From Methanothrix sp. (GTDB lineage Archaea > Halobacteriota > Methanosarcinia > Methanotrichales > Methanotrichaceae), in NCBI GenBank assembly GCA_963682135.1, contig OY821645.1, positions 2,816,001-2,880,000 of the forward strand: a DNA stretch of 64,000 bases, in the 5' to 3' direction. Position numbers and translations under genes: made by a program. Positions 16,783-32,734 of the stretch are shown here, one piece after another (the first letter of the stretch is position 1; every line of letters starts with the position of its first letter). The notes beneath the pieces were generated by a model. That model ran no database searches, was not told the origin of the DNA, and was given only the letters and a program-made list of their open reading frames with translations.

Positions 16783-18420
16783 TTGCAGTTGCTAGCTCTA
16801 ATCCAAAATGTGGGATATATGAACTCATACATTATATATATATTTGTAGTTTGTTTGCTTCTATCCTCAGTATTACTGCTAATTAGGGATTTCGAATATA
16901 AGTATTATGTTTTATCCTTATTGGTATATATATCGTTTTTAATCATATATCCGCAATTACTTTCTCCGTATATAATTGGTGTAGATTCTCATTTTGAACG
17001 AGCAATGGTTGAATTAACTTTAACTAAAGGCCAATGGTATAGTGATCTTCCTGAAAATTTAGTCAATGCAGCGTTGTCGATCTGCATATTTGCCCCTATT
17101 ATTTCGCTTGTAAGCGGGCTTTCCGTTGACATAGTATTAAAGTTTATCTTATCGATTTATCCAATAATTTCAATTGCAATTATATGGTTATTCAACAAAA
17201 AAATATTCAGTTTTACAAATAAAGAGGCATTCATTTCGCTTCTATTTCTCATAGGCTCTAGCCAATATATGCAATTATCTATTTATGGTCGTCAAGAGGT
17301 TGCGTTTTTTCCTGCATTATTATTTATCTATTTAATATCTATAAAGAATCATTTTGCGCGATTCAAAATAGTATGCTTATTATTGCTGATTGGCTTAGTA
17401 ATCTCTCATTATGCCTCTTCTTTATTTTTGATTACTATTTTTATTACTAGCAGCCTGATAACGAGTTTGGTAGCGAAATCACATGGGCGATATAATGCCT
17501 GTTTAGAATTTGCTCTTATTAGCTTAGTTCTGGTGATCTTTTGGCTTCTATTCGTAGTCAATGTGACTAAAGTGAGTATTATAGTTTCTGCCCATAATGC
17601 CTTACTTGGTGTGATAGAATTTAATACCGGAAATATATCACCAGGAGCAGCGGATTCACTGAATCCTTCGTTCGTAGATATATTCTTTAAAATAAATTAC
17701 GTTATTAATATTATGACTTCTATATTAATATCATTGGGTATATTATTTACTATATATAGAACTGTATTAAATGAAAAAGTTGAATCGTATGTAATAACAA
17801 AATATCTATTTTTTTCAGCTTTATTAGTTTTTTTTGTTTTCAGCACTTTTTTACCTACCGTCTCTCTTTTTTATTGGCCTGAGCGCTCCTATATTTTATT
17901 ATTATTATTTTGCAATGGATTTTTAATTATTGGATTTCGAAATATCGTAGGAATTGTGTGGTCACACTCTGCAACAATTGATAGAAATCACAGCTTATAT
18001 GTTGGCAATATTATTATTATGTTAATTTCTATAATAGTTTTATCACATTTAGTTCTTCAGATTGGACTGCCTACTCAGCTCGTATACGGGCATGTGGATA
18101 GTAAATATTTTACAGATATTAAAAATAACCATTATACATTAGCCGAAGAGGTGGATGCAGTCGATTGGCTAAATGACTATAAAGCTGAAAACAGTACAGT
18201 ATTTACGAGTTTATATGGCAGAGGCATCTTGCCTTTAACAAGCTATGGAATGCTCAAATCCAGCAATATTATTACATTTAATTCGATTGAGAATATACCA
18301 AGATCTTCACAAAGAAATCACATATATATGCAGAAAGAAGGATTTATTAGATATGGAACAGATATTGTTAAAGAGTCAAATATATATAATTCGTATACAG
18401 CAAAAATATTCCTCGCCTAA
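16783..18420 (+). CDS. Polytopic membrane protein (DUF2206-like, glycosylation associated)
   Basis: Many TM segments with GVDSHFE, RQEVA and GLVISHY motifs. Start uncertain. Confidence 0.6.
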   Translation: MQLLALIQNVGYMNSYIIYIFVVCLLLSSVLLLIRDFEYKYYVLSLLVYISFLIIYPQLLSPYIIGVDSHFERAMVELTLTKGQWYSDLPENLVNAALSICIFAPIISLVSGLSVDIVLKFILSIYPIISIAIIWLFNKKIFSFTNKEAFISLLFLIGSSQYMQLSIYGRQEVAFFPALLFIYLISIKNHFARFKIVCLLLLIGLVISHYASSLFLITIFITSSLITSLVAKSHGRYNACLEFALISLVLVIFWLLFVVNVTKVSIIVSAHNALLGVIEFNTGNISPGAADSLNPSFVDIFFKINYVINIMTSILISLGILFTIYRTVLNEKVESYVITKYLFFSALLVFFVFSTFLPTVSLFYWPERSYILLLLFCNGFLIIGFRNIVGIVWSHSATIDRNHSLYVGNIIIMLISIIVLSHLVLQIGLPTQLVYGHVDSKYFTDIKNNHYTLAEEVDAVDWLNDYKAENSTVFTSLYGRGILPLTSYGMLKSSNIITFNSIENIPRSSQRNHIYMQKEGFIRYGTDIVKESNIYNSYTAKIFLA

Positions 18421-18702
18421 TTTTTAGTTCCGAGAATGAGCATAACAATAAACAATATCTTCGATCATAGTTGATTGATTCGCCCTAGAAACCTTCAAAT
18501 TTCGTCCTCTCTTTTTATACCTAATCTAAAGAGGATGACAAAATCAGAGGTTAACATGAATCCTCGATTGGCTAATGGTCTCATAAACGAAAACCAATGG
18601 ATCTGGACATCAAGCTCGGATATGAAACGCCCATGCGCCCCAGGCAGAGGCTCACACGTGACGGATGGAAAACCACATATTGTAATCCGTTCACGTTAAA
18701 TG

Positions 18703-18848
18703 TGGTTATGGGCAGTGAAGGCTGACAAGTTTATGGGACGGCTGATCCCGCGATTGAAACGAGCCAAGATCCCCCGAATACGGGACTGCGTCATAGAACG
18801 CGTATGGGAAATTATCTCATATCAGGGAAACATCATCTGCCCATACCA
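18703..18848 (+). ncRNA. Candidate IS110 bridge RNA in left non-coding end
   Basis: Closing stem TGGTTATGGGCAGTGA / TCATCTGCCCATACCA. Internal ATGGGAAA (18804-18811) copies the predicted circle junction. Inference from IS110 biology. Confidence 0.5.
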
Positions 18849-18855
18849 GGCAGAA

Positions 18856-20181
18856 ATGTATATGAAAAAACGAAGAGATAGAGTTTGCGGTGCAGATGTC
18901 CATAAAGATTTGATCGTGGCAACAATAACAGGCGATGATTTTCAACCGATTCGAATGGATTTTGGGACAACGAAAACTGAACTTAGGAAATTTCGCAAAT
19001 GGCTGGTAGCCAACAAATGCGAACAGGTGGCATTTGAGGCTACTGGAGTCTATTGGATACCGATCTATGATGCATTGAGCAAAACCATAGATACAATCGT
19101 TGCCAATCCGTTGCAGATAAAGACTATTCCCAACGACAAATCTGATTCAAAAGACTCAAAGCGGATTGCATCTCTTTGCCTGAACAATCAAATCAAGCGC
19201 TCTAGGGTATTTACCAATGAAGACCGAGATCTCAGGACTCTAACTCGAGCCAGGTCCGGATATGTCAAGACACGAACTCAGTTCCGGAATCGGATACACA
19301 AATACCTTTCATCATGCGGGATCAAACTCAGTTCTTGCATGGACGACATATTCTGCAAATCCGGCAGATATATTTTGGACGGTCTGGCAAAAAAGAAGTC
19401 CATCGAGAAGATCTTGAAAGGCATCCCATCCGGAAAAATAAGGAAAAAGCAAGACGAAATTAGGGTAGCACTTGAAAGAAGTCTTGATGATACAAACAGA
19501 ATGCTCTTAATAGATGCCCTGGAATTCATTGATAATCTCGAATCCAAAATAGAAAAGCTGAGCCATGAGGTCCTGAAAAAGATTCAGCAGAAGAGCAAAG
19601 ACCTGGCCATCGTCATGTCAATTCCAGGAATTGGATTCGTATCCGCATCGGCCATATTGTCTGAAATTGGAAATTACCGTGATTTTCAGACACCTGACCA
19701 ACTCGCTAAATGGTGCGGCCTCAATCCTGGAGAAAGCGAATCTGCGGGCAAAAAGAAAAAATGCGGAATTACAAAGAAGGGTTCCAAGTACATTAGAGTT
19801 ATGCTGGTTCAGGCTGCAAAGACCATCGGAAGAATGAAAAATACACGGCTTTCCAGGTTCTTCCAGAGGTTGGTCAAAAAGAAGGAGCCAAATGTAGCCA
19901 CTATTGCTGTAGCCAGGAAGCTTATCTGTCTCATTCATCATCTTCTTATCAACCAGGAGCTGTATCAGGAAGGTGAATGCAGATCGAGAGGAGCAAGTCA
20001 GGATAAGTCCTGCCAGGCACCTTCATTTCAGGATGAGCAATTGACGGATAGAGTAGCTGCAATTGTGGACGCCTTTTATCACCTGAAAGAGGGCAGCAGG
20101 AAGAATGCTCTTATGCGTGAGCTTGGAGCCATTTCTATAACAAAACCCGGCCAGAAAAGGCCATCCGGGGGAGGTGAATAG
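18856..20181 (+). CDS. IS110 recombinase/transposase
   Basis: DEDD RuvC-like motifs GADVHK, FEATG, KSDSKDS, plus C-terminal IPGIG...GLNPGESESAGK. Confidence 0.93.
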   Translation: MYMKKRRDRVCGADVHKDLIVATITGDDFQPIRMDFGTTKTELRKFRKWLVANKCEQVAFEATGVYWIPIYDALSKTIDTIVANPLQIKTIPNDKSDSKDSKRIASLCLNNQIKRSRVFTNEDRDLRTLTRARSGYVKTRTQFRNRIHKYLSSCGIKLSSCMDDIFCKSGRYILDGLAKKKSIEKILKGIPSGKIRKKQDEIRVALERSLDDTNRMLLIDALEFIDNLESKIEKLSHEVLKKIQQKSKDLAIVMSIPGIGFVSASAILSEIGNYRDFQTPDQLAKWCGLNPGESESAGKKKKCGITKKGSKYIRVMLVQAAKTIGRMKNTRLSRFFQRLVKKKEPNVATIAVARKLICLIHHLLINQELYQEGECRSRGASQDKSCQAPSFQDEQLTDRVAAIVDAFYHLKEGSRKNALMRELGAISITKPGQKRPSGGGE

Positions 20182-20279
20182 GTCGCCTCCTGATTATGAT
20201 TTATGTGGTTTTCCATGGGAAATCTAATTCACTACCCGCAATACGATATATGGAGAAAACGATGTATTCATTTAGTGAT

Positions 20280-21467
20280 ATGAAATTATTAGTTATAACA
20301 GAAAGGTATCCTCATAAAATGGATTCCGTAAGTGCATCTTTTGTAAAACATCAGATCAAATATATAAAGAATTATATTGATACAGTATATGTAATATCGC
20401 TAACGGCATTCATCCCTAAATTTTTAGCTAAATGCTCTTTCATGCATCCGTTATGGCGGATGGATGCGTATGCAGAAAATTATAATTATGATAATGTATA
20501 TGTGTACTATGCGAAACATTTTAATCTTCCTTTATCTTTTTGCATGAAACATAAAGCAGAAATAACTTTAAATGTAGTTAAAAATATAATAAATAGAAAA
20601 AAGTTGGATTTTGATTTGATTCATGCTCATTTTATCGATCCTGCGGGCTATGTAGCAGTGAAACTTAAATATTTATATAGAAAACCAGTTATATTGACTG
20701 TTCATGAAAATAGAGAATGGTACTTAAAATTAATCTCTTCTCCGAGTAAGAAGACGTCCTATACTCTGCAAAATGCAGATAAAATAATTCGGGTCAATAA
20801 GAATGATATAGAAAATTTAAAACGTCTGGTAAAAAATGATTCTAAATTGATATATATGCCTAACGGATATAATTCTGAACTATTTAAGCCGTTGAATATG
20901 CTAAATTGCCGCTTGACACTTGGGTTAAGGCATGACAAAAAAATAATTTTAAATATTGCAAGTTTAGAGACTAAGAAGGGACACGTATTTTTGATAGATG
21001 CAATGGAGAACGTTTTTAAAATTAGAAAAGATGTATTGCTTTATATTATTGGGCAAGGATCTCTGGAAAAGGAACTTAAGCAATTGGTTGCTGAGAAATG
21101 TCTTCAAGATTGTGTCATCTTCGCGGGTGGCAATAAACCTCAAGAGGAGTTACCGATTTGGATAAATGCCTGCGATATATTTATTGTGTCAAGCTTAAGC
21201 GAAAGCTTTGGGATTGTCCAGATTGAGGCCCTAGCTTGCGGAAAACCAGTGGTAGCCACTTATAATGGTGGGAGCGAAGAGGTCATAATAAATGAGAAAT
21301 TGGGTGTCCTAGTTGCATCAAAGGACTCCCAGGGATTGGCATGTGCAATATTACAGGCTCTTGATGCCAAATGGGATGAGGAATTTATAATAGATTACGC
21401 CAATAATTATGCATTGAATCATACAACTAAAAATTTAATTCAGGTATACGAATCTACTCTGGCTTAA
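20280..21467 (+). CDS. Glycosyltransferase family 4 (TuaC-like)
   Basis: MKLLVITERYP, IHAHF, SESFGIVQIEALACGKPV. Confidence 0.92.
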   Translation: MKLLVITERYPHKMDSVSASFVKHQIKYIKNYIDTVYVISLTAFIPKFLAKCSFMHPLWRMDAYAENYNYDNVYVYYAKHFNLPLSFCMKHKAEITLNVVKNIINRKKLDFDLIHAHFIDPAGYVAVKLKYLYRKPVILTVHENREWYLKLISSPSKKTSYTLQNADKIIRVNKNDIENLKRLVKNDSKLIYMPNGYNSELFKPLNMLNCRLTLGLRHDKKIILNIASLETKKGHVFLIDAMENVFKIRKDVLLYIIGQGSLEKELKQLVAEKCLQDCVIFAGGNKPQEELPIWINACDIFIVSSLSESFGIVQIEALACGKPVVATYNGGSEEVIINEKLGVLVASKDSQGLACAILQALDAKWDEEFIIDYANNYALNHTTKNLIQVYESTLA

Positions 21468-22497
21468 GGATGACTTTAATGGTGGGGCGAGTATATTCTT
21501 CGTAATTCAAGAGATGTTTTCCCATTATTTTAGCAAATCCTTCCATATCAATTTTTATCAAACTGCATAGGATGCAAAGCAACGCAATTAGTTTTAAATA
21601 ATATGTTCCCTTGGCAAAAGCTTCTGTAAAGTCAATTCTAGCGATATTCCAATTACCTTTAATTAAATTAATTCTGCCAGAATATAAATATCCACAGGCA
21701 ATCCCCACATGATATGTCTTATAAAGAGCATTTTCTGTGATTCCCTGCATTTTTAGCGAATGAACTAAATCTCGCGGTAGTTTATCATAAAAATCTATTA
21801 TAAACTTGTAGGACGTGGCCATCTCTAAAACCATTGATGTGGTTACTTGTCTATTGTGTCTTCTCCAATACCCCAGTGTATCATTAATGGGCAGAAAATC
21901 TCCAATCAAAATAAGCTCCAACCATGTCGGATAATCTACATATGGGCATCCAGTCGGTTGCCTAAACCCACCGATCGAGAGTAGTCTATCCTTTCGACAT
22001 ATCACAGTGCAGGCAGTAATGAAATCTCTGTAAATCAATTCTCCTATAAGTCTCGATTTGGGCATAGTCTCATATTTTTCGATGTTTTCTGGGGTCGAAA
22101 ACATATGAGTTCCTTCGATATTTACATTGACAGCTTTTCCAAAGCAAAGTACGATTTCTGGATTGATAAACGCAGGTATTTGCTTTTCTAATTTGTTTGC
22201 AGGCCAAAAATCGTCTCCTTCCAAGACCGCTATGAGTTCTCCTCTTGAAATACTAAGAACCTTATTATATGTTTCTCCAAGTTTAAATATACCTGCATTT
22301 TTTTGCTGTATATATTTTATGCGTTCGTCTTTGTAGCGTTCAACTACCTCTGCTGTACCATCGATGGACCCATCATCGATGATTATTAGCTCCCAATAGG
22401 GATATGTCTGTGCTAAGACGCTCTCAATACATTGCCCGATAAACATCTCATGATTATATGTAGGCGTTATAATGGATACAAAAGGTCTATATATCAT
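21454..22497 (-). CDS. Glycosyltransferase family 2
   Basis: SIITPTYN, IIDDGS, LEGDDFW. Confidence 0.92.
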   Translation of the reverse strand: MIYRPFVSIITPTYNHEMFIGQCIESVLAQTYPYWELIIIDDGSIDGTAEVVERYKDERIKYIQQKNAGIFKLGETYNKVLSISRGELIAVLEGDDFWPANKLEKQIPAFINPEIVLCFGKAVNVNIEGTHMFSTPENIEKYETMPKSRLIGELIYRDFITACTVICRKDRLLSIGGFRQPTGCPYVDYPTWLELILIGDFLPINDTLGYWRRHNRQVTTSMVLEMATSYKFIIDFYDKLPRDLVHSLKMQGITENALYKTYHVGIACGYLYSGRINLIKGNWNIARIDFTEAFAKGTYYLKLIALLCILCSLIKIDMEGFAKIMGKHLLNYEEYTRPTIKVILKPE

Positions 22498-22708
22498 AGA
22501 ATCACTCTCAACGATGTGATTGACACATGATCCATTTGGTTATTTGTTGGTTCATGCGGTTTAATCAAATGCGAGTTTTCTCATTAATTATACAAGTAAT
22601 AATCATCAAAATTTTTGTTAAACTTCAGGCTCCTACGCAAACTCCATGTCGAGGGATTCTTGAATTTATATGTCATATATAATAGTTAACTAGACGATTT
22701 CGCTACCA

Positions 22709-23458
22709 TTACCTAGCTATCGACCGAATATGCTCAAAAAAATTTATTATTATTTTTGCATAATAGTTTATTCTAATTTTTTTTATAGTTATAGGATTTT
22801 GAGCGTCCCAATTTCCATTAGTAGTATATATATAATTATAGCTATATTTATGTTTTTGGAGCAATTTTTCCAAAGAAAAAAAATATCTTTCAGAAAAGGA
22901 ATATCCACTTGACCTATGATATAAGTAGCATGGTAGAACATAAGCATATAGACCCAGAAGCTTTGCACTCAGACAATAATCTACTGCATATAAGTGCCAA
23001 TCATCACAAACTAGCTCATCGAATTGCAGTTTATCGAATATTTTTTTTGGTATGATTACGAGACATTCATCTAACGTTTGTACATTTTCAGGGCCTTCTA
23101 TCTGGGTGTTCCCTGCTAATGTAGGTGGATTGCCATGCTTAATGTTTGTAATCACACCAGTACTATTTTTTGCACCGGCTACTCCGGCAATTCCAAGACT
23201 CGGTAAGGAATCTAATGTTTTTTCTGCATTCTCTAACCAATATTCCGAAGATAAATTAACGTCTTGATGTATAAACATAATATATTTAGAATTTGCCTGC
23301 CTACCTCCTCTGTTCAGAGCTTTTGCCGCAGAATTAAATTCTGCCTTAGTATTGTCTATCATTATCAAATTGTATTCTGCGGTTTGTTTTTGGAGACCAT
23401 TTAATAGATATTTCTCCAAAATTTGCCTATTATTATATGCGCAGACAATGGATATCAA
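22709..23458 (-). CDS. GT2-like glycosyltransferase
   Basis: MISIVCAYN, FIHQDV, QTLDEC, WHLYAVDYCL. Confidence 0.85.
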   Translation of the reverse strand: MISIVCAYNNRQILEKYLLNGLQKQTAEYNLIMIDNTKAEFNSAAKALNRGGRQANSKYIMFIHQDVNLSSEYWLENAEKTLDSLPSLGIAGVAGAKNSTGVITNIKHGNPPTLAGNTQIEGPENVQTLDECLVIIPKKIFDKLQFDELVCDDWHLYAVDYCLSAKLLGLYAYVLPCYLYHRSSGYSFSERYFFSLEKLLQKHKYSYNYIYTTNGNWDAQNPITIKKIRINYYAKIIINFFEHIRSIAR

Positions 23459-23517
23459 TTTAACAACCCCTCTATCTAGACAGTGTTAACATCAAGCCTC
23501 GGAATTTTGAAGAAATC

Positions 23518-23848
23518 AAACTGCGCGCGGCCACCCCACCCTAAACGCCCATGTGCCTCAGCATAATTGCACATACGAGGCGAATGAAAAACAAGATCTA
23601 TCGACATCTTAAGTCTCGTTTTTCATGGGAAAGGGATGGGTATGCTTCGGCCCGCGCGCCAGGGTTAGCCGGATTTCAGAAACATCCGAACCTTCGGTTT
23701 CCTGGATCTGCTTATCAGAATAATTGCGTATTTGCGTTCGGTTGCATGATCGCCTTGTTAAATCAATCTCAGAAAACATGAAATCAGGGCGAGGGTTCAC
23801 TTCATCCCCAACCTTAAGGATGGGGAATTCGTGACCCTCCGCACTCCC
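23518..23848. mobile_element. IS200/IS605-derived palindrome-associated MITE (PATE-like), interrupted
   Basis: One end GCGCGCGGCC-ACCCCACCCT[insert]AAAGGGATGGG-TATGCTTCGGCCCGCGCGC, other end hairpin TTCATCCCCAACCTTAAGGATGGGGAATT. Confidence 0.65.
23545..23631 (+). mobile_element. 87-bp non-autonomous IS110-type mini-element
   Basis: AA|ACGCCCATG...CATGGG|AA ends identical to the IS110 at 18627. Internal IR ATGAAAAAC. Removal restores the CCCTAAAGGG hairpin. Confidence 0.75.
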
Positions 23849-24089
23849 GTTGTTTTAATATGACTCTTCTTCTGATTAATCCGGAAGCCAGCCCGGTCAC
23901 TTCATCATCATCATATGCTTGCAGCGATTTCGGAGATCATAGGTAGGATTTGGTTGGGACCTCTATGTCGCACCAGCGATGACCTAGCAAGCACTGCATC
24001 AACTCTACCCTTATCGCCGTAATACATACCAAATTATAGAATTCGCTTTTGTGGGAGCATCCCCATAGGGCGTATTTTTTGTAGTCTTT

Positions 24090-25007
24090 CTAATTTTTAT
24101 CTAAGGGCCGAATTATACGTTTCAGCCTGACAACATTAGCATAAGCATTCTCACCAAATAACCATGAAAGAGCGACTACCAAGTATTTTATGTTAAATGG
24201 ATTTGACCTCAGCGCCCGCAGAAGGTACATTCTTCCTTCACGCTTGCTTCCAGCTTGGCACAAATGAAATCCAATCGAATACTGCCAGCTCGCCAATGAA
24301 TATTTATTCCTCTTGAAAGTACGAATGTGTTTCTCAATTATTAGCTTACTTGCTTTAAAGAATGCATCCTGATTAGCAGAGATACTATCTTGCGAATAAA
24401 ACGCATTTAGTAACGGCTCGTCAATGCAATCAAATATATAATATTTTGATATTCTAATGAATAGTTCCCAATCTTGGAGGCGAGGAAGACTTTCGTCAAA
24501 AACGCCTACTTTTTCGAAGCATTCCTTTCTTATGACTACCGCATCGGCTGCCACAAAATTTCCATTAAGAAGCTCTTCATGTAAATTACCTTTCTTTATT
24601 TTTATATTTTGGCCAGGCATATACATTCTACTATCGTCTTTTATTAAATAGAATCCAGTATAAACTACTCCAACCTGGGTTGAAGCCTTTTCAAAGATTC
24701 TCATCTGTTTTTCTAATTTTTCTGGCAACCATTCATCATCGCTATCTTGAAATGCTATGTATTCCCCATGCGCTGCATTTATTCCTGTATTCCTGGCTGC
24801 CGAGCCGCCTCTGTTCAACTCGTGGCGGATGTATCGGATGCGCGGATCGTTGAAGCCCATGATCACCTCTTTGGTATTGTCCATGGACGCGTCGTCCACT
24901 ACAATGAGTTCGAAGTCATGGTAGGTCTGGTCCAGCACGCTACGAATCGCCCTAGCTATCAAATGCGCACGATTGTAGGTCGGGAGGATTACACTTACGA
25001 TTGACAT
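24090..25007 (-). CDS. Glycosyltransferase family 2
   Basis: SVILPTYNRA, VDDAS, AARNTG, FQDSDD, QDWEL. Confidence 0.93.
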   Translation of the reverse strand: MSIVSVILPTYNRAHLIARAIRSVLDQTYHDFELIVVDDASMDNTKEVIMGFNDPRIRYIRHELNRGGSAARNTGINAAHGEYIAFQDSDDEWLPEKLEKQMRIFEKASTQVGVVYTGFYLIKDDSRMYMPGQNIKIKKGNLHEELLNGNFVAADAVVIRKECFEKVGVFDESLPRLQDWELFIRISKYYIFDCIDEPLLNAFYSQDSISANQDAFFKASKLIIEKHIRTFKRNKYSLASWQYSIGFHLCQAGSKREGRMYLLRALRSNPFNIKYLVVALSWLFGENAYANVVRLKRIIRPLDKN

Positions 25008-25290
25008 CTCGCTCTCCTTTATTTACGATAAACGGATTCTTAGTCTGTGAATGCCTTCCCTATGTAGGTCTATTCTAATGGCTTCGCCATTTTAGGTTGA
25101 ATTGCTCAATAGACTTCGTCTAATGATATTGTTTAACAATCTGGCGATAGTCACTGGTGAGCTCTTATTCGTCATCAAATGGCATCGACATGCGCCCAAT
25201 TCAGGAGAGCTAAGCATTTACAATAAAAGCAAACACCAGAATTTAAACTAATATGTGAGCTCAATCAATAACCAATGTTGAGCAATTTGA

Positions 25291-26595
25291 TTATGCTTTC
25301 ACTATTTTATCACTTCTAATATGACATGTCGCATTTCTTGTATCTACAATTAGTTTGCTATTTTTTACTATAGATTCGTAATTATAAGAGGAATGATCTG
25401 TCAATATAACTACGCAGTCGTATTCCCACAAATCCGTTTCTAAAATTGGAACTGATCTCATCTGGAAATTATACTTTCTAATTTTTGGCATCTTTGGAAC
25501 ATAAGGGTCATTGTATTTCACTTTTGCTCCATGGGTAATAAATAGGTCCATCACCTTCAAAGATGGTGATTCCCTTGTATCTCCAACATCTTTTTTATAG
25601 GCTAGACCAAGGATTAGTATTTTCGAATCCTTTACTGATATATTTCGGTCATTGAGAGCTTGTATGGTCTTTTCTACCACATAGTAAGGCATATGGGTGT
25701 TGACCATTCCTGCAAGTTCTATGAACCTAGTCTCAAAGTCGTACTCTCTAGCCTTCCAGGTCAAGTAAAATGGATCTATGGGAATACAATGTCCGCCCAA
25801 GCCAGGACCAGGATAGAATGCCTGGAAGCCAAAGGGTTTGGTCTTGGCAGCATCTATTACTTCCCAGATATCTATGCCCATACGGTCAAATAGAATCTTG
25901 AGCTCGTTAACAAGCGCAATATTTACTGCACGGTAGATATTTTCGAGAAGCTTGGTTGCTTCCGCCGCTCTAGTAGAAGATACGGAAATGGTCTCGATCA
26001 AAATGGATTCATAAAGAGCCTTTGTAGCCTCTAGGCATTGTTCAGTGAATCCGCCTATCACTTTAGGTGTGTTGACAAGGCTGAATGCTTTGTTGTTTGG
26101 ATCCTCTCTTTCAGGAGAATATGCCAGGTAGAAGTCTTCTCCTGCCCTCAAACCAGTTGCTTCAAGTATTGCCCTCATTTCTTCGTCGGTTGTACCAGGG
26201 TATGTTGTAGACTCCAGTATGATTAGCTGGCCTTTGCGCAAATGCTTAGCGATTGTTCGACTGGTGTCAAAGACATATGATAAATCAGGCTCTCGGTTTC
26301 TATTGAGGGGAGTAGGAACGCAGATTATTATGCAATCAGTCACCTCCAGGAGATTAAAATCTGTGATTGGCTTGAGCTTGCCTTTTTCCATGACCGCCAT
26401 TATTTTTTTAAAATCGATGTGGTGAATGTAGCTTTTCCCATCCTGAAGAGCGTCTATCTTTTTTCCATCAATATCGAAGCCGTATACGTCAAAGCCAGAT
26501 TGTGAAAAAGCTAATGCAAGGGGGAGGCCTACGTATCCAAGGCCAATTATACCTACTTTAGCATTTCTATTTTTAATTTTATCGATCAATTCCAT
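25291..26595 (-). CDS. UDP-GlcNAc/ManNAc 6-dehydrogenase (WbpA/WecC family)
   Basis: GLGYVG, CVPTPL, ESTTYPGTT, YSPERED, GPGLGGHCIPIDP. Confidence 0.93.
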   Translation of the reverse strand: MELIDKIKNRNAKVGIIGLGYVGLPLALAFSQSGFDVYGFDIDGKKIDALQDGKSYIHHIDFKKIMAVMEKGKLKPITDFNLLEVTDCIIICVPTPLNRNREPDLSYVFDTSRTIAKHLRKGQLIILESTTYPGTTDEEMRAILEATGLRAGEDFYLAYSPEREDPNNKAFSLVNTPKVIGGFTEQCLEATKALYESILIETISVSSTRAAEATKLLENIYRAVNIALVNELKILFDRMGIDIWEVIDAAKTKPFGFQAFYPGPGLGGHCIPIDPFYLTWKAREYDFETRFIELAGMVNTHMPYYVVEKTIQALNDRNISVKDSKILILGLAYKKDVGDTRESPSLKVMDLFITHGAKVKYNDPYVPKMPKIRKYNFQMRSVPILETDLWEYDCVVILTDHSSYNYESIVKNSKLIVDTRNATCHIRSDKIVKA

Positions 26596-26726
26596 AAAGA
26601 ATCCTTGCCTTTGATGCTGTGTCGCATAATTTATATAGTAAAAATATAGTATGTGTTTAGCTCACACCCAGGTTTTTAAAATACAACTCTGGCAGAAATG
26701 ATTTAGACCAAAAAAAATTAAGTAAT

Positions 26727-26770
26727 GTGAAACGGCGGCGGCGCACCCGCGCAGCAAGCTGCATGGTTTT
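26727..26770 (+). repeat. GCAGCAAGCTGC-type palindromic end
   Basis: GTGAAACGGCGGCGGCGCACCCGCGCAGCAAGCTGC. Confidence 0.7.
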
Positions 26771-26914
26771 CATTTTCGATAAATATTATTTTATCGAAGA
26801 TCAATATAAATGAGCGTTTTGAACCAAAAAGAGATCTCGGGCATTTAGCGACATAGGATGTCGCAAAATGGGCTTATGGATACTGGTTATGATGTGCTGA
26901 GCATATACAAAAAT

Positions 26915-28267
26915 TTATAAGAGATGAACATATTTCTTTAGTATTCTATTGAAATATGGTTTCGATCTTTTAATCTCTATCAAAGATTCCAGCTTAATCC
27001 CTTGACCGGTCCATTGCATTTCATTTATATCTTTGGCGCATAATTTTCCGCAAAATTCTGCTACGTCAAAAACATTCTCCAGACCAAATTCAGCCGCATC
27101 AAGCACTAGATCACTACCATTAAATCCCTTTTTGAAAGAATCATCACTGCAATATTCCTGAATATGGCAATCAAAAATCTTACCATAAATCTTTTTTATG
27201 AGATGATACCATCCAGGCATACCATCCTCATCTCTGGAATGGTCTTTGAATTTTTTGTCAAACCATAACTGCAAACCACGATCATCAGCTAGCGAATCTC
27301 GGATTTTGCCTAAATGCATTCTCCATTCCGTTTCTCCATCAATGCCTCTGAGAGATCTTTCTCGCAATTCATTCACGCAGTTGAAAGTAAGTCTTTTGCG
27401 GTTGATACAAATATTTTCATCATTAGGGAAAAGATTATCCTTCGCCCAAAGAAACGAGTCTCCAACATATGCAGAATTCACCGGAATATCTGGAATTCTC
27501 GGATGACGTATGCGATTAGCTTCAGCACTCAGGAGCCAAAACTCTTGAGCGATCAAATTATCTTTTGCATAAGTTGTGGCAAATCCGGTACTAAATGACG
27601 ATTTTCCAGCAATGCCTAATGGTAGTCCTATAGAGATGTAGTTCTTTGCGAGATGCGCGAACGCAAAGCCGGAATATACATCAGGACTCTCGGTAGGAAA
27701 TAGGCTTCCCGTTTTATTACGCAACAAATCTATAAGGGTTCGATGAATCGCTGAACGGTAGATCATTGGAAATCCATCGCCATAGCTAATTTCGAAATTG
27801 GCCATTTTTTGAATAACTTTTCGGGAATTAAGCATCTGATTTTTTCTGACAATAGGGATGACGAGTCGATTCTCAAATTCCGGAGCATTTGGCCAATTGT
27901 AGTAAATCCACTGCCAATGCAGGGCTTTAACATCGAATACCCTGAGTAATTGATTGATCATATCAAGTGCATTCAACAAAAGGCCATCGTCATCTCCTAT
28001 TACGATTACATATTCGCCTTCAGCATGAGAAATCGCTAGCTCCCAATTTTGGCTCATTGCAAGAGGTCGGTCTGATCGAATATATTTTATCTTTTCCGAC
28101 TCAAAGCTATCTACTGTTTCCCTGGTTCCAATGGAACTGCAATTGTCGCAGACTATGATCTCATAGTCATTAAAATTTTTTTGATTTAAGCAGGTTAATA
28201 AAGCATACTTCAATGTGGCATGCCTATTTCTGGTCGGTATCACAATGCTGAATCTAGGGGTTGACAT
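26915..28267 (-). CDS. Glycosyltransferase family 2
   Basis: FSIVIPTRNR, VCDNCS, IGDDDG, SPDVYSG. Confidence 0.88.
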   Translation of the reverse strand: MSTPRFSIVIPTRNRHATLKYALLTCLNQKNFNDYEIIVCDNCSSIGTRETVDSFESEKIKYIRSDRPLAMSQNWELAISHAEGEYVIVIGDDDGLLLNALDMINQLLRVFDVKALHWQWIYYNWPNAPEFENRLVIPIVRKNQMLNSRKVIQKMANFEISYGDGFPMIYRSAIHRTLIDLLRNKTGSLFPTESPDVYSGFAFAHLAKNYISIGLPLGIAGKSSFSTGFATTYAKDNLIAQEFWLLSAEANRIRHPRIPDIPVNSAYVGDSFLWAKDNLFPNDENICINRKRLTFNCVNELRERSLRGIDGETEWRMHLGKIRDSLADDRGLQLWFDKKFKDHSRDEDGMPGWYHLIKKIYGKIFDCHIQEYCSDDSFKKGFNGSDLVLDAAEFGLENVFDVAEFCGKLCAKDINEMQWTGQGIKLESLIEIKRSKPYFNRILKKYVHLL

Positions 28268-28603
28268 TCTATCTCCTAATTATATCCTTATGTAATATAC
28301 GGCGTGTTGTTTTTTTATTCATACTTAATAGTTAATAAGAATAATAATTAATTATGGCTTCTGAGATCTGCTGTAATCGAGACATCCTTTCCTCTCACTG
28401 AGCCTTCGCAATATTCGGATAATAAATCTAAATTATTTGATAATATTACAGATATATGATTTATTGATATTAATTCATAGATACGTTTATAGGAATCCTC
28501 AATAATAAATTTAATCGATACCTCTTTCGATATAAGTGCCCAATAACACCGGATGCCAAAAGAGATCTATAAATGCCCTATATGCTTTAGTCGTTGACCC
28601 AAA

Positions 28604-28743
28604 GTGAAACAGCAGCGCACCCGCGCAGCAAGCTACGGAGCATCCGAGGCGTCGCCGCTTTAAAATGGAACCAGGTAGAGCTAATCAAAGCCTAAGATGA
28701 ATACGTATGCCCTTTATCCCAGTCGCAGCAAGCTGCGGGAATT
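28604..28743 (+). mobile_element. ~140-bp MITE with two GCAGCAAGCT hairpin ends (IS200/IS605-like)
   Basis: GTGAAACAGCAGCGCACCCGCGCAGCAAGCTACGG ... TTTATCCCAGTCGCAGCAAGCTGCGGGAATT. Confidence 0.65.
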
Positions 28744-28863
28744 GCGTTTTTAAAATCAGGGATTATTGAGTAAATTATTTTCCGTCAATACCTATAAGCT
28801 TTAAACTGCGAGTGATTCAGATGTGCTTGCACTGATGATTTCACACTATTTTCATCTGATTTG

Positions 28864-29766
28864 CTAAAGATGAGATTTCCACCAGAGAATTGTTTCATCC
28901 AATCCTCGGTCAAGTTCGTATTTGGGTGTCCAGCCCACTTCTTTTGTAATGCGACTAACATCAGCCACCAATAATGGTGGGTCGTCTGATGACATAGGAA
29001 CTGCGCCATACTCAATATGATCACTGTTATTGATCTTGTCCGAAATTTTTTGGATTATATTTTTTAAGACAACAGGCCTGCCCGATCCGATATTCACTGG
29101 CCCCTCAACACCGCTTTCCAATAGAGCTATAAATGCATCTGCGACATCCTTAACATATAAAAAATCTCGAATCTGATTTCCGTGAGAACAGCGTGCTTTT
29201 TCTCCCATCAGCAAAGAGCGAATAACAGATGATGTCAGTCGGTCTTGATGCTCATAAGGGCCATATAGGAAAAAAATGCGCCCCCATGCTGTACTGAGTC
29301 CGGTTTCTTTGGATAGACTATCAAGTATTATTTGCAGAGAATGCTTGCATGTTCCATAAAGTGTTGAAGGTAAAAGAGGAGTCACTCTTTCAGAACAATA
29401 TCCATATCTCCAATCATACTCCGCGCACGTGCCAGCCAGAACCGCTCTCTTTCCACCGTTAACAACGAACGCCTGCAAGAGCTCAAGGCTTGATTGAACC
29501 CAGCGGATGTTCTCCAGTGATGTCCAGCATTTTCCCGGCACAACGTACCAGGCAAAGTGTAATAAGTGCGATGGCATAACATCGGTCACTAAATCTTGTA
29601 GCTGCAAGGAATTCAATAGGTCGATTTTGTGCCAGTGAATAACTGAACTGCTATCCATGGGGCACCTTGTAGAAACGGCATGAACCTCATAACCCCTCGA
29701 AGACAAAAAAGGCAGGCAATGACGGCCTATAAATCCTGTAGCTCCCGTGAGCAATATTCTTTTCAT
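28864..29766 (-). CDS. NAD(P)-dependent NDP-4-keto-sugar reductase/epimerase
   Basis: TGATGFIG, GTCAEY, YGTCK, RIFFLYGP. Confidence 0.88.
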   Translation of the reverse strand: MKRILLTGATGFIGRHCLPFLSSRGYEVHAVSTRCPMDSSSVIHWHKIDLLNSLQLQDLVTDVMPSHLLHFAWYVVPGKCWTSLENIRWVQSSLELLQAFVVNGGKRAVLAGTCAEYDWRYGYCSERVTPLLPSTLYGTCKHSLQIILDSLSKETGLSTAWGRIFFLYGPYEHQDRLTSSVIRSLLMGEKARCSHGNQIRDFLYVKDVADAFIALLESGVEGPVNIGSGRPVVLKNIIQKISDKINNSDHIEYGAVPMSSDDPPLLVADVSRITKEVGWTPKYELDRGLDETILWWKSHL

Positions 29767-29828
29767 AGATTGATGTCCGAATGCTTTTTATATTTGGCTG
29801 AGATAATTTGTTTTTGATATGAAAATGA

Positions 29829-30165
29829 GTGACTATTCAGCCCTTCCCTGTAAATCATTACGGTTTTAGGCTGAAACCAACGTTTTTCCGGGAATGAATG
29901 GATTGCCTTCAAAGACTCCTTGAATGGCGTCGATAACTGAAATGGAGTTCTTTTTGACCGTAGAGATATATCCTCTAATTCTGCAAAAGATTCTGGCCCC
30001 TTCCCAGCTCCTGAAGTTGCCTGAAATTTTCTGCTGAACTTTCACCATTCTCTGATCCCTCTCTGCCAGATTATTGTCAAATGGAACCTCAAAGTCATAC
30101 ATGAAAGCCAAAGCTTCTCTCCGATACTTGTCCATTCTCTCCAACAGATTTGAGGCCTTTGTCTT
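29829..30165 (-). mobile_element. IS66 C-terminal remnant with right TIR
   Basis: VPFDNNLAERDQRMVKVQQKISG...FCRIRGYIST and end GTGACTATTCAGCC. Confidence 0.85.
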
Positions 30166-30752
30166 TTTGATATGAAAATGATTCATATTTACCTATGCAG
30201 TCGCCGCCTTTGTCACTGAAGATCCGGCCTTCTCAAGCGATCTAACCATCGATTGCTCTCTTCTTTTTGATGTTCTTTCATGAATGGCCTCTGCACCCAT
30301 ATCCTGATAAGGCTCAGATGTCTTGAGTACAAAGTAGATATCGATAAGCATACACGATGCGCCAAAGCAACAAGAGTCAAGAGTCTTCTTTTTGCCCTCC
30401 CTTCTGATGAAATTATGGTAGAAGGCATTATATGAGGTGTTCTTAGTTTTTGAAGCAGCCCATGCGGATTCAGTTAAGGCTCCCTTTAGAAAGGAATTGC
30501 CTTTCTGTGTTTTTCCGCTCTTCTTCTTTCCCGCACTCTCGTTATTGCCTGGGCATACGCCCGCCCAAGAGTAAAGATGTGCTTCATCTGGAAACTGAGA
30601 CATATCATTCCCAATTTCTGCCAATATTGCTGACGCATTAACTTCACTGATTCCTGGAATCGTTTGAATCAGCTTCGATTCCTTCTGAAAAGGGATCATC
30701 TTTTTCTCGATCTCCTCATCGTGTTTATTTATTTGCTTGGTAAGATCGTCGA
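30166..30752 (-). mobile_element. IS110 C-terminal remnant with right end
   Basis: TIPGIS...WAGVCPGNNESAGKKKS and right end TTTTCATATC|AA. Confidence 0.85.
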
Positions 30753-31383
30753 TACCAAGAAAGATGAACCACTGGAAACCCACTATTTTATCGAAGCGGT
30801 TGTCGAGCTTGATGCAGATTCTATTTTAAGAAAACGCCAGATGCTGGGTCAGTTTGTCCTTGCCACTAATAAAATGGATCTGGACGGGGAGACTATCCTT
30901 GCCAATTACAAAGGGCAACAGAAGGTTGAGCATGGATTCCGCTTCTTAAAGGATAAATGCTTTCATGTTGCGGAGATCTATCTCAAGAAAGAGGAGCGAA
31001 TAGAATCGCTAGCCATGATCGTGGTTCTCACTCTTCTCATCTATGCTTTTGGCGAATGGATCTTAAGGAAAAAACTAAGTGAAACCGGAATGACTGTACC
31101 CAATCAGCTCAAAAAACCGACCCAAAAACCAACTATGAGATGGGTGTTCCAGATTTTTATGAGGGTCACACACACGGTATTGATTGAAGACGGTCATGTG
31201 GTTAAAACAATAGTTCACCTAACCCAAGAACAGGTAACAATACTCAAGCTTCTTGGACCGGAATGTAAAAAATACTATGGGTTGGAGGGTTAATGCGGAA
31301 ATCCTCATGAGCCAGGACTAAGGCTCACGCTCGAAGAATGAAAAAAACCGATATGCAGTTCGGTTCTTTCATAGGAATGTGGG
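30750..31383 (+). mobile_element. IS1634 C-terminal remnant
   Basis: FVLATN, YKGQQKVEHGFRFLK, PNQLKKPTQKPTMRWVFQ. End TGCGGAATGTGGG is reconstituted after removing the mini-element. Confidence 0.85.
31301..31377 (+). mobile_element. 77-bp non-autonomous IS110-type mini-element
   Basis: AA|ATCCTCATG...CATAGG|AA, hairpin TGAGCC/GGCTCA, IR ATGAAAAAAACCGA / TCGGTTCTTTCAT. Confidence 0.7.
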
Positions 31384-31498
31384 ATACATTCTGGCCAAAA
31401 GCCTCGTTGTGCACAGGTCTTTCCGGCTCATGATAATTGAATCTCTTAGTTTTGTATCGTTGAATTTCTCAGATACCACTCGTTGCGCCTTTTTTAGA

Positions 31499-32734
31499 TC
31501 AAATTACATTTACTTCCGGTATAGGAATTATGAACCGTCCCCCACGTCGGCGATATTCTGCTTGCTGAACTAGAATTTCGTCGGCAAAATTCCATGTTAG
31601 TAATAATATGTAATCCGGCATTGATACCAACAGTTTGTCTGGAGAATATATTGGCAAGTGCACTCCAGGCATATAATGGCCCTGTTTAAAGGTACTGCGA
31701 TCAACAACATAGTCCAAGAACTGCTGCCCAATTCCAAAGTAATTTAGAAGGGTACTGCCCTTGGCAGCAGCTCCATATGCTGCAATTGCCTTTCCATCCT
31801 GTTTCAAGTAAGCCAGGAGGCTGCAGAGGGATTCCTTTAGCTCCTCAACCCTTCGCGCAAAGTCATTATAATACTCAAATCGATCCATTCCCCAATTAGC
31901 CTCAGCCCTTAGCAGGTTTTGCACAGCATTAGAACGGCCAGAGGAGCTGGCTTTTGCCACCAAGAGTCGAAGCGTGCCTCCATGAATTAGCACTCTTTCT
32001 GCATCCTGTATAACCATCCCATGTCGCTCGATCAGATTATCCAATGATATGAGGGAAAAGTAGCATAGATGCTCATGGTAGATGGTATCGAACTCGCATT
32101 GGTCGATTAGATCCTTGAGGTAGGGAGCTTCTATGATAGCTATCCCATCCTCTTTGAGTAGAAGACTGATACCAGCTACGAAGCCATTGAGATCAGCTAC
32201 ATGTGCCAGCACATTGTGTGCATGGATAACATCTGCTTTCTTTCCCTGCAAAGCCAATTTATTCGCCAATTCAATACCGAAAAACTCAGATAATGTGGGA
32301 ATGCCTCGCTCTTTCTCTGCCACCTTTGCTATGTTTATTGCTGGCTCAATTCCCAGAACTGGAATCCCTTTCTGCTTATAGTACTGGAGCAAGTATCCAT
32401 CATTGCTAGCGATCTCGATGACAAAGTTGCTGCTATCCAAATGGCGAGAATTAATAACTCCTTCAACTAATCCTTGAGCGTGTCTCAACATAGTATCGGA
32501 AAAGGAGGAAAAATAGAGATATTCTCTAAATAGCCTTTCAGGCGGCAACGTTTCAGTGATTTGCACCAGCTTGCAGTTAGGGCAGAAGACAAAATCCAGC
32601 GGATAGATGGCCTCCAGCCTATCGAGCTCTTCAGCTCTTAGCAAGCCATTAGCCAGTGGGGTTTTTCCTAAGGAGAGGATGGTAATTAGGCCGGTCTCTC
32701 CGCATGATCGGCAAAGAGGTTTATCAAGAATCAT
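31499..32734 (-). CDS. NDP-hexose C-methyltransferase (TylCIII/EryBIII-like)
   Basis: [17 protein letters not shown] Zn domain, EIASNDG, DTIYHEH, IHGGTLR, YGAAAKG, LLTWNF. Confidence 0.9.

Follow-up and report, generated by a model that had tools for sequence, protein, structure and literature searches.

Two miniature IS110-type elements in an archaeal genome, most likely moved by full-length bridge-RNA-guided relatives

Two very short elements lie in the window, that is, the whole 64,000-nucleotide stretch of Methanothrix DNA analyzed here. We propose that these two, mini1 and mini2, derive as non-autonomous miniatures from bridge-RNA-guided IS110 elements of one archaeal clade and were most likely moved by full-length helpers. 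The proposal draws on what was observed of their anatomy, their copy number, the filled and empty sites and the correspondence of guides to targets. A first-pass annotation had already recognized an IS110-like architecture in both, and we found it where it had been placed, in elements of 85 and 75 bp with AA on each side (Table 1; slashes in target sequences mark the insertion point).

Table 1. Features of the two miniature elements, their hosts and the IS110 elements of the window.
Feature	Position	Strand	Remark
IS110-A, autonomous relative	18627..20219	+	AA cores both sides; three identical copies
IS110-A repeat arms	left 18665-18678; right 20203-20216	+	right arm followed by GGG
IS110-A bridge-RNA-like region	18706..18846	+	19-region alignment, consensus fold
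IS110-A bridge closing stem, TATGGGCAG/CTGCCCATA	within 18706..18846	+	
IS110-A variable 5' loop strand, AAGTTT	within 18706..18846	+	
IS110-A variable 3' loop strand, GATTGAAAC	18752-18760	+	
IS110-A right-end-matching strand, TATGGGAA	18803-18810	+	
IS110-A recombinase CDS	18862-20181	+	
Mini1 host, short ORF-less IS200/IS605-type end-only element (PATE-like)	23512..23859	+	both ends match 723-bp IS200-like element
Mini1, non-autonomous IS110-type element, 85 bp	23545..23629	+	three genome copies; CM score 78.8 bits
Mini1 left end, ACGCCCATG	starts 23545	+	
Mini1 hairpin	23551-23556 with 23569-23574	+	
Mini1 repeat arms	left 23584-23592; right 23618-23626	+	connector in between; GGG tail after
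Mini1 AA cores	left 23543..23544; right 23630-23631	+	filled versus empty alignment
IS110-C, partial, distant IS110-family element	30166..30754	-	34% amino-acid identity to A; ends unrelated
Mini2 host, 3' remnant of IS1634-family element	30664..31386	+	NF033559, positions 335-483 of 483
Mini2, non-autonomous IS110-type element, 75 bp	31301..31375	+	single copy in genome
Mini2 left end, ATCCTCATG	starts 31301	+	
Mini2 hairpin	31308-31313 with 31322-31327	+	
Mini2 repeat arms	31338-31351 and 31360-31372	+	AGG tail after
Mini2 AA cores	31299-31300 and 31376-31377	+	

Mini1, mini2 and the full-length IS110-A share the same order of features: a left end (consensus A(C/T)(G/C)C(C/T)CATG), a hairpin, a repeat arm, its partner arm and a 3-base tail. 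The inverted-repeat arm begins 39 bases in for mini1 and 37 for mini2, and the tail is GGG or AGG. The minis retain about the first 50 bases of the left end (the terminal 9 bases, the hairpin and the left sub-terminal repeat arm) together with the right repeat arm and the 3 bases after it, which make up the final 12-16 bases of the right end and are preceded by a short connector specific to the minis. An alignment of 42 minis showed that ends and connector are their whole content: they encode no protein and have neither a recombinase gene nor the bridge-RNA-like region of about 140 nt, and must therefore depend on both. The description of the minis as made only of donor ends was thus right about the ends but overlooked the connector, which reads GATCTATCGACAT or, in the mini2 class, GATATGCAGT, and which occurs in none of the full-length elements compared; that the minis share it counts for their common descent. 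Because they carry this connector and always keep the hairpin and the covarying repeat, we infer no more than that they may represent a natural minimal donor. The end pattern suggested for a genome-wide search gave 15 matches in the 3.04-Mb genome, with AA on both sides in mini1 and mini2 only, which speaks against a chance resemblance.

The two minis lie, as had also been proposed, in the ends of other mobile elements. Mini1 interrupts the tip of the end hairpin of a PATE-like host, a derivative of an IS200-like element with which it shares both ends and which encodes a Y1-type TnpA ORF and is present in five copies. Mini2 splits the terminal bases of the IS1634 remnant (TGCGGAA/TGTGGGATA), whose ORF at 30664-31293 corresponds in NF033559 to the C-terminal part of the IS1634 transposase (E 5.7e-37). 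IS110-C adjoins mini2.

Filled and empty sites could be compared for both elements. Mini1 has two further 87-bp copies in this genome (89.7% identity), and its host repeat is present in three filled and six empty paralogous copies, the latter reading ...CCACCCTAAAGGGATGGGG... without insert; the empty site is CCCTAAAGGG and the filled one CCCTAA + 85 bp + AA + AGGG. The close PATE copies of five other genomes all lack an insert at the mini1 site (5/5). For mini2, one close and two distant empty sites were found; the close one, at genome position 387908, reads ...AATGCGGAATGTGGGATA... and its left flank is 91.6% identical. In the alignments of both minis the filled site differs from the empty one by the element and one additional AA, the 2-base core alone being repeated. 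The prediction that excision restores recognizable targets is therefore borne out by the six paralogous copies for mini1 and the paralogue at 387908 for mini2. The first-pass annotation had also considered that each mini might be single-copy with no empty site: mini1 is multi-copy with empty sites, and mini2 is indeed single-copy here, yet empty sites are present. We saw no circle junction or excision allele; the joints in the public sequencing runs (stored as contigs) correspond to the paralogous empty copies.

Each class of minis shares its ends, AA core and target with a different full-length IS110, in agreement with the earlier suggestion that several IS110 pairs are involved. Mini1 pairs with IS110-B of this genome, with which it shares the left end given in Table 1, the right end GTTTTTCATGGG, the AA core, the right flank AGGGATGGGG and a near-identical stretch, ACG(A/T)GGCG(A/G)ATGAAAAAC. 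The mini2 class pairs with IS110-D from a related genome (G042): the first 43 bases of IS110-D are near-identical to those of the mini2-class copies of G042, it ends in CATAGG, and it sits in GTGCGGAA/TGTGGGAT, the same host flank as a mini. A third class, from other genomes, pairs with IS110-A, the element that the first-pass annotation had called intact and that indeed has both Pfam domains in three identical copies. The domains DEDD_Tnp_IS110 and Transposase_20 are present in IS110-A, IS110-B (422 aa) and IS110-D (414 aa), and all three match NF033542, "IS110 family RNA-guided transposase", with 247-266 bits (cut-off 140). No D-type partner for mini2 was found in this genome, the exact bridge-body anchor being confined to IS110-A (three times) and IS110-B (once); lacking that partner, mini2 is probably stranded. 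We found no full-length A-type element in several genomes rich in A-type minis, e.g., G042.

The non-coding region of these full-length elements appears to provide the link between minis and targets. Aligning and folding 19 distinct bridge-like regions showed conserved stems and hypervariable loop strands of a putative bridge RNA. The loop strands spell the target sites: CCCTAA/AGGG, the site of mini1, for IS110-B and TGCGGAA/TGTGGG, the site of mini2, for IS110-D. The 5' loop strand corresponds to the core and right flank in reverse complement (CCCTTT for B, CCCACATT for D). Between the 3' loop strand and a left junction, contiguous matches of at least 8 bases were present in 8 of 18 elements when the junction was the element's own, as against 1 of 290 non-cognate pairs. 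Another strand, GTAT(G/A)GGAA or GTATGTGAA, covaries with the right end of the element (CATGGGAA, CATAGGAA, ATATGAA). Counting matches of at least 6 contiguous junction bases, the B guide fits 5 of 7 mini1-like copies, the A guide 21 of 27 A-like minis and the D guide 5 of 9 D-like minis. The left flank of IS110-B agrees with the guide of that element over only 6 contiguous junction bases, four of them (AAAC) invariant among all guides, and in two D-type elements (L028 and L063) only the right side fits the guide. The bridge-like regions yielded no strand complementary to the left end, which would correspond to a right donor guide.

These observations suggest the following scenario, in which the minis would be mobilized in trans. 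A full-length element in the same cell would supply the DEDD recombinase and the RNA encoded in its left end. Two variable strands of one RNA loop would spell the left and right target halves around the AA core, and another strand would match the right end of the element together with the core. A mini with the same ends would then be treated as a donor and placed at the same target with the addition of the 2-base core only. In this way IS110-B of this genome would serve mini1 at the hairpin tip of IS200-type ends (CCCTAA/AGGG), and IS110-D-type elements would serve the mini2 class at IS1634-type ends (TGCGGAA/TGTGGG). A double-stranded circle of 85 bp would be very strained, 75-85 nt being too short for an unstrained one, and a single-stranded circle or direct strand transfer would fit the minis better. 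Single-strand circles, copy-out and direct strand transfer have been described for other IS110 elements in two recent preprints (10.64898/2026.08.31.748434, 10.1101/2025.10.25.684509).

The hairpin and the sub-terminal repeat are kept in all 42 aligned minis and in all full-length relatives seen, and in every element, mini or full-length, the repeat arms match each other and not a family consensus. Folded as single-stranded DNA, mini1 and mini2 each form two hairpins (z = -3.23 and -3.81 versus shuffles). Four repeat positions are changed on both sides, one pair being GC in 22, AU in 13, UA in 4 and other in 3 (n = 42). We tentatively consider that these structures might act in cis, as folds that a transposition intermediate adopts in single-stranded form, a possibility that we hold to be rather doubtful. 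If true, the two hairpins would serve to offer the AA junction to the recombinase-RNA complex, and the spread of the minis would be evidence from nature that movement in this archaeal IS110 clade involves a folded single strand, either a circle or a transferred strand. Alternatively, the minis may be partly self-guided, the transcribed left arm and hairpin guiding their own right end, with only the recombinase and the target loop borrowed. The mutual match of the arms and their paired changes agree with it, as does the difference between the arms of mini2 (ATGAAAAAAACCGA) and IS110-D (ATGTAAAACTTG) despite shared ends and target. Under mobilization by a helper, such a pair would not fit if the repeat were read in trans. 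However, a hairpin formed by a single-stranded DNA intermediate would account for the covariation just as well, the pairing of columns 48 and 84 is lost in 7 of 42 copies, and the sequences are related, so that shuffles overstate the signal. We regard self-guidance as unlikely; were it true, the minis would show the minimum that an RNA-guided recombinase really requires in cis.

The distribution of the minis in related genomes bears on whether they moved at all. Of 105 genomes from the same archaeal family, 73 have matches to the covariance model, and these matches include the left ends of full-length elements. From related genomes we collected 43 distinct minis of 73-97 bp; 42 measure 73-85 bp and the other bears a 12-bp internal duplication. 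Full-length relatives of mini2, which measure 72-75 bp and are 80-92% identical where they align, are present in G042, G047, G053 and G049. One could suppose that each mini arose once, by insertion or internal deletion, and was multiplied only passively, by copying of the IS200/PATE, IS1634 or CRISPR repeat that hosts it. The three mini1 copies of this genome do occupy the same position of one host repeat family, mini2 is single-copy here, and some minis from different genomes (e.g., L076 and L087) share both flanks, which looks like vertical inheritance. But the 43 minis have at least 32 right-flank contexts, and the only sequence that they share beyond the element is the 8-10 guide-matching bases. 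The same class also occurs in unrelated hosts with the same short target. In this genome and in G059, for example, the host is the IS200 hairpin, whereas in G033 it is another repeat, whose site is empty at two places in this genome. Moreover, diverged host copies carry identical minis, since two identical mini1 copies (87/87) occupy host copies with differing flanks, and a host end whose hairpin tip is interrupted would probably no longer function. Passive copying is in our opinion very improbable as a general explanation, even if the three mini1 copies of this genome, all in one host repeat type, may to some extent have spread together with it. That each mini is the leftover of a full-length IS110 at the same site, whose interior was lost independently, agrees with the ends that they have in common but is hardly credible: the connectors are common to minis and absent from the full-length elements compared, and 42 of 43 copies fall tightly within 73-85 bp, which would require identical deletions again and again. 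Mobilization by full-length helpers is thus the reading that we retain.

A non-autonomous IS110-family element has been published before: it is MITEPpu9, the ssr9 module of ISPpu9 from Pseudomonas putida, which its authors call MITE-like and registered in ISfinder (PMC12288879). As described there, MITEPpu9 resembles the minis as a non-autonomous unit between copies of IS110/IS1111-family ends that needs the IS transposase (a need in trans that the minis presumably share), with a 2-base crossover (AG for MITEPpu9, AA for the minis) and palindromic repeats as targets. It differs by its sRNA gene, ssr9, and its experimentally detected minicircles, whereas the minis are known here from sequence, measure 73-85 bp, are archaeal and have neither an sRNA gene of that kind nor a guide region. 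No such module, with an sRNA gene between IS ends, was found in the minis, and in this genome the body anchor of bridge-like regions is confined to IS110-A and IS110-B.

The minis belong with the IS110 family by the recombinase domains of their helpers, the ends that they share with them, insertion at a 2-base core and a predicted RNA region matching target and end. As in the cited descriptions of IS621 and IS110 (PMC11208160, PMC11208158), the recombinase combines DEDD and Transposase_20 domains, a non-coding region lies at the left end upstream of the gene, loop strands pair with both target halves around a 2-base core and a strand matches the right end and core. In contrast to IS621 as presented in PMC11208160, the strand for the left target and core lies 3' of the complement of the core and right target (the opposite order holds in IS621), the left end has a hairpin and a covarying sub-terminal repeat, and a strand complementary to the left end was not found in our regions. 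The seekRNA-associated IS1111 elements, as outlined in PMC11187229, share with ours a sub-terminal repeat (9-14 bp), a right extension of 3 bases and a strict choice of target, which is often a repeat or the end of another mobile element; IS4321 and IS5075, for example, target Tn21-family ends according to the title of a reference cited in PMC12288879. In PMC11187229 the subgroup is defined by repeats of about 11-13 bp, a left extension of 6-7 bp, a right extension of 3 bp and a long non-coding region that follows the gene; in our elements the left extension measures 37-39 bp and the non-coding region precedes the gene, which places them outside this subgroup. The smallest IS110s described in a recent preprint (about 800-843 bp) still encode a recombinase, while the minis are ten times shorter and encode nothing (bioRxiv 10.64898/2026.08.14.744561).

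Finally, the minis can be compared with classical MITEs and with the PATEs and REPINs of IS200/IS605. Like them they are short, non-coding, structured and multi-copy (73-85 bp, 43 copies), have cognate autonomous elements (IS110-B and IS110-D) and would use a transposase in trans. Unlike them, they have no true terminal inverted repeats, the repeat being sub-terminal and asymmetric, and no target-site duplication beyond the 2-base core, and their choice of target appears to be set by the guide RNA of the helper element.

The window lies in a genome assembled as one 3,043,341-bp contig with 50% G+C, whose host is archaeal (the SSU model for Archaea scores 1574 bits), and within it the surroundings of the two short non-autonomous IS110-type elements (minis), mini1 and mini2, form a glycosyltransferase island with many IS remnants. 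The intact IS110 proposed by the first-pass annotation was confirmed as IS110-A, a complete element present in three identical copies, in which a left end of 235 non-coding bp and a right end of 38 bp frame a recombinase gene of 439 codons carrying the DEDD_Tnp_IS110 and Transposase_20 domains (NF033542 match of 254 bits). Its left end runs from ACGCCCATG through a hairpin to ATGGAAAACCACAT, which begins at base 39, and its right end consists of ATGTGGTTTTCCAT and then GGG; the sub-terminal inverted repeat is thus 14 bp long and the right extension 3 bases. The same order of features recurs in mini1 (85 bp) and mini2 (75 bp), with sequences own to each and AA on each side, so that the architecture of ends, hairpin, sub-terminal repeat and AA that had been suggested for the three elements was indeed found. 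A genome-wide search with the pattern proposed earlier gave 15 matches, and only mini1 and mini2 had AA on both sides. Folded as single-stranded DNA, both form the two expected hairpins, with z = -3.23 for mini1 and -3.81 for mini2; of six further folds, z was within the range -2.06 to -4.44 in five and stood at -0.49 in that of the relative L009. Outside the window, at genome 1608218-1608347 (minus strand), a left-end-like sequence is joined directly to a right end and core (CGCCCATGGGAAAGCC) in two copies 117 bp apart, which may be a coincidence within a coding repeat.

Positions and main characteristics of the IS110-type elements and neighboring remnants
Feature	Position	Nature	Details
IS110-A	window 18627-20219	complete IS110-family element	AA either side
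mini1	window 23545-23629	mini	left end ACGCCCATG; hairpin ATGTGC/GCACAT; arms ATGAAAAAC/GTTTTTCAT; GGG tail
IS66 transposase fragment	window 29866-30186	part of IS graveyard	
IS110-C partial copy	window 30166-30754	part of IS graveyard	95.8% identity to genome 2383844-2384423
IS1634 remnant with mini2 inside	window, up to 31386	part of IS graveyard	adjoins IS110-C copy
mini2	window 31301-31375	mini	left end ATCCTCATG; hairpin TGAGCC/GGCTCA; arms ATGAAAAAAACCGA/TCGGTTCTTTCAT; AGG tail
IS110-B	genome about 3001941-3003468, outside the window	class B (mini1) counterpart	

Both minis sit in the ends of other mobile elements, and the claim that their excision restores recognisable targets was borne out by uninterrupted copies of both hosts. 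Two other copies of mini1, at genome positions 161989 and 2318750, are identical to each other and 89.7% identical to the window copy, and all three break one repeat family at the same position. Six uninterrupted copies of this repeat in the genome read ...CCACCCTAAAGGGATGGGG..., and relative to them the insert equals the element plus AA. Five copies exist of the repeat, an IS200-like element of 723 bp whose ORF encodes a Y1-type TnpA; the host copy in the window (23512-23859) and the one at 162 kb are short, ORF-less, end-only derivatives resembling PATEs (end-only IS200/IS605-type repeats), and the insertion point is the tip of the host's end hairpin. In five other genomes the nearest relatives of these PATEs (90-93% identical) were examined, and all five were empty. 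This comparison uses paralogous copies and PATE copies of other genomes only, and a search for an orthologous empty site gave no listed match for the genes flanking the PATE in 58 other genomes of the genus (E up to 1e-10). As for mini2, it interrupts the final bases of an IS1634 remnant, whose ORF matches positions 335-483 of the 483 of NF033559; a paralogue at genome 387908 shows the unbroken end ...AATGCGGAATGTGGGATA..., and in two more distant paralogues this end motif is present with a single-base difference (GCGGGAATGTGGG). This remnant closes an IS graveyard (window 29866-31386) of three remnants placed end to end. In four public sequencing runs, a joint 23545>23638 (contig-level, with six other letters between) was rejected as an excision allele, since it corresponds to an empty paralogue of the host repeat. 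High-depth variants over mini2 (also contig-level) come from other genomes in these runs that have related copies.

The minis form a family that extends beyond this genome. A DNA search of 61 genomes of the same archaeal family detected mini1-like elements in 16 and mini2-like elements in 13, the genome of the window being counted in both, and 43 distinct full-length minis of 73-97 bp were extracted from the fetched loci, with at least 32 different right-flank contexts. The alignment and the covariance model were built from 42 of them, to the exclusion of L005, whose 97 bp include an internal duplication of 12 bp. At E up to 0.001 the model has matches in 73 of 105 family genomes, left ends of full-length elements being among them; 80 of the matches listed exceed 59.6 bits, which is what the left ends of the six full-length A-type copies of genome G047 score. 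In a class-wide sample (E up to 1e-6), matches were found in 36 of 74 genomes of the window's own family (its own genome left out), in 1 of 67 of a second family and in none of the 9 from three other families. Within the present genome the model finds only four minis and four full-length left ends. Two mini1-like elements from another genus (L006 and L019, genome G004) have the right junction CATGGG|AG instead of AA, with the flanks CC(A/G)GAA|...|AGA(T/G)GG, and in that genus the core or the boundary may be a different one.

Ends and target divide the minis into distinct classes, and each class has a full-length counterpart. For mini1 (class B) this is IS110-B, whose intact recombinase of 422 aa is 59% identical to that of IS110-A; mini1 and IS110-B agree in both ends and in the repeat core ATGAAAAAC/GTTTTTCAT, and the right flank of IS110-B, AGGGATGGGG, lies within the remnant of another IS200-type end. 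The pairing of each mini with an autonomous IS110, suggested by the first-pass annotation, holds for mini1 in this genome; for mini2 (class D) no helper of the D type was found here, and the counterpart is IS110-D of genome G042. IS110-D is a full-length element with a 414-aa recombinase, a CATAGG tail and first 43 bases nearly identical to those of the mini2-type copies of G042; its target GTGCGGAA|TGTGGGAT is also theirs, and it shares the outer flank of one of them. Directly downstream of it (L042, about 2140-2520) lies a tandem array of some 25 copies of a ~15-bp unit (AGTGCAATGTCAATT-like). IS110-C, a distant relative, was ruled out as a helper of mini2 because its ends are unrelated. Class A comprises 27 A-like minis from other genomes, none having been found in this one, with IS110-A ends and sites of the form ...(A)TTGAA|AC....

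What the minis lack is a putative guide region of ~140 nt, present in the left end of 19 distinct full-length relatives downstream of the repeat arm. Its stems are conserved (the closing one is ATATGGGCAG/CTGCCCATAT, the inner ones are GGGA/TCCC and GCGT/ACGC), and two hypervariable strands lie between them. The 3' strand reads as the left flank followed by AA and by the element's two initial bases (A, GATTGAAAC; B, (T)CCCTAAAC; D, CTGCGGAAAC; L049, GGCTAAAAC; L071, TTTATAAAAC), and the 5' strand corresponds, in reverse complement, to AA and the right flank (in B, CCCTTT for AAAGGG; in D, CCCACATT for AATGTGGG). Another strand (GTATGGGAA, GTATAGGAA or GTATGTGAA) varies in step with the right end and core (CATGGGAA, CATAGGAA or ATATGAA); inspection of the guide regions by eye revealed no covarying RNA strand complementary to the core and left end. 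The 3' strand matched its own junction over at least 8 contiguous bases in 8 of 18 elements, versus 1 of 290 non-cognate pairs. Such contiguous matching replaced a crude fixed-register scoring, in which the cognate contrast was weaker (means of 3.6 versus 1.6 of 7 on the left and 3.1 versus 1.6 of 6 on the right). In L057, L058 and L067, all of them full-length, no more than 2 junction bases match the guide, and their left ends may be mis-called. An Rfam scan of window 18000-32000 (E up to 10) gave six matches, which fall far short of their gathering scores; no bridge or seek RNA family is among them.

Many of the minis themselves sit at sites fitting these guides: at a threshold of 6 contiguous bases, the class guide matched 5 of 7 minis of the mini1-like type, 21 of 27 of the A-like type and 5 of 9 of the D-like type. 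Of the four D-like minis without a match, three, including mini2 of the window, were seen by eye to have a TGCGGAA flank and a left end beginning otherwise than with AC; the fourth, L026, has a TGCGAAA flank and CC as its first bases. In IS110-B the guides spell CCCTAA|AGGG and fit the mini1 sites (8 contiguous junction bases) better than the element's own left flank (6). IS110-B matches its guide on the right flank only (AGGGATGGGG, part of an IS200-type end), the left flank GACTCTAA fitting poorly, and in the D-type elements of L028 and L063 the match is likewise confined to the right side; such cases resemble 'half-match' insertions or the outcome of later rearrangement.

Besides a few bases adjacent to the core, the minis have always kept the hairpin and the self-complementary repeat. 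In the 42-sequence alignment, 93.4% of the cells of the repeat helix are paired, with two-sided changes in 4 of 9 pairs (for instance GC 22, AU 13, UA 4, other 3 in one pair and AU 23, GC 11, GU 1, other 7 in another), and one hairpin pair counts AU 23, UA 6, other 13. Over the structure as a whole, pairing amounts to 84.0% of cells, and sliding the partners by one to three columns lowers it to 22-47%. Not one of 500 shuffles attained the observed covariation score, which, the sequences being related, is an indication and not a probability. Self-matching repeat arms, differing between elements, occur in full-length elements as well. The connector between the arms (GATCTATCGACAT in most classes) was found in minis only, which argues against repeated deletions in situ and suggests that the minis arose once and then spread.

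Trans-mobilisation by a resident full-length element is most likely, the latter supplying recombinase and guide RNA to the minis. A double-stranded circle of 85 bp would be strongly strained, and because the minis are so short, their length hints that the intermediate is single-stranded or that transfer is direct; in a folded single strand, hairpin and repeat would have a function. Two preprints report that IS621 is excised as a single-stranded circle and that direct transfer of a strand is possible for another IS110 (10.64898/2026.08.31.748434, 10.1101/2025.10.25.684509).

The other two copies of IS110-A lie outside the window inside a CRISPR array (genome 2283876-2288164, minus strand) with 16 copies of a 37-nt repeat ending ...AAGGATTGAAAC and spaced by 71-76 bp, both inserted at ...GGATTGAA|AC of a repeat, and the 3' loop strand of the IS110-A guide (GATTGAAAC) is the conserved 3' end of this repeat. 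A-like minis at ...GTCGTGGCTCAATTGAA|AC were found in L021 (G039:C20), L008/L062 (G039:C73), L012/L061 (G027:C79) and L013 (G014:C61); at L050 (G033:C1), with the same site, the match is to the left end only. The GTCGTGGCTCAATTGAA sites are the last visible CRISPR repeat: in the stretch retrieved, as many as 20-21 repeats lie upstream of it and none lies downstream. CRISPR repeats appear to be targeted by RNA-guided elements and their minis; our literature search found no report of IS110 elements targeting them. Together with IS200 end hairpins and IS1634 ends, they make multi-copy sequences the targets of these elements.

Bridge-RNA recombinases are under development as genome-writing tools, and the excision of the elements and their donor requirements are debated. 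The spread of ends-only elements of 73-85 bp through an archaeal family constitutes a natural experiment, which suggests that in this clade recombinase and guide RNA act in trans on very short donors. In the main texts searched, we found no description of ends-only elements under 100 bp, of a guide-less archaeal family or of a class-by-class guide match, and on IS110-derived MITEs they offered only MITEPpu9 and the ISfinder label 'ISNme5_IS110' (quoted in PMC11602168). MITEPpu9 is an already published MITE-like module of an IS110/IS1111-family element with an sRNA gene, for which minicircles were detected (PMC12288879). The smallest IS110s described, of about 800-843 bp, keep the recombinase gene (10.64898/2026.08.14.744561). 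Finally, compared with the bridge RNAs of PMC11208160, the guide region has its target strands in reversed order and no left-end-complementary strand was found in it, but it follows the same logic.
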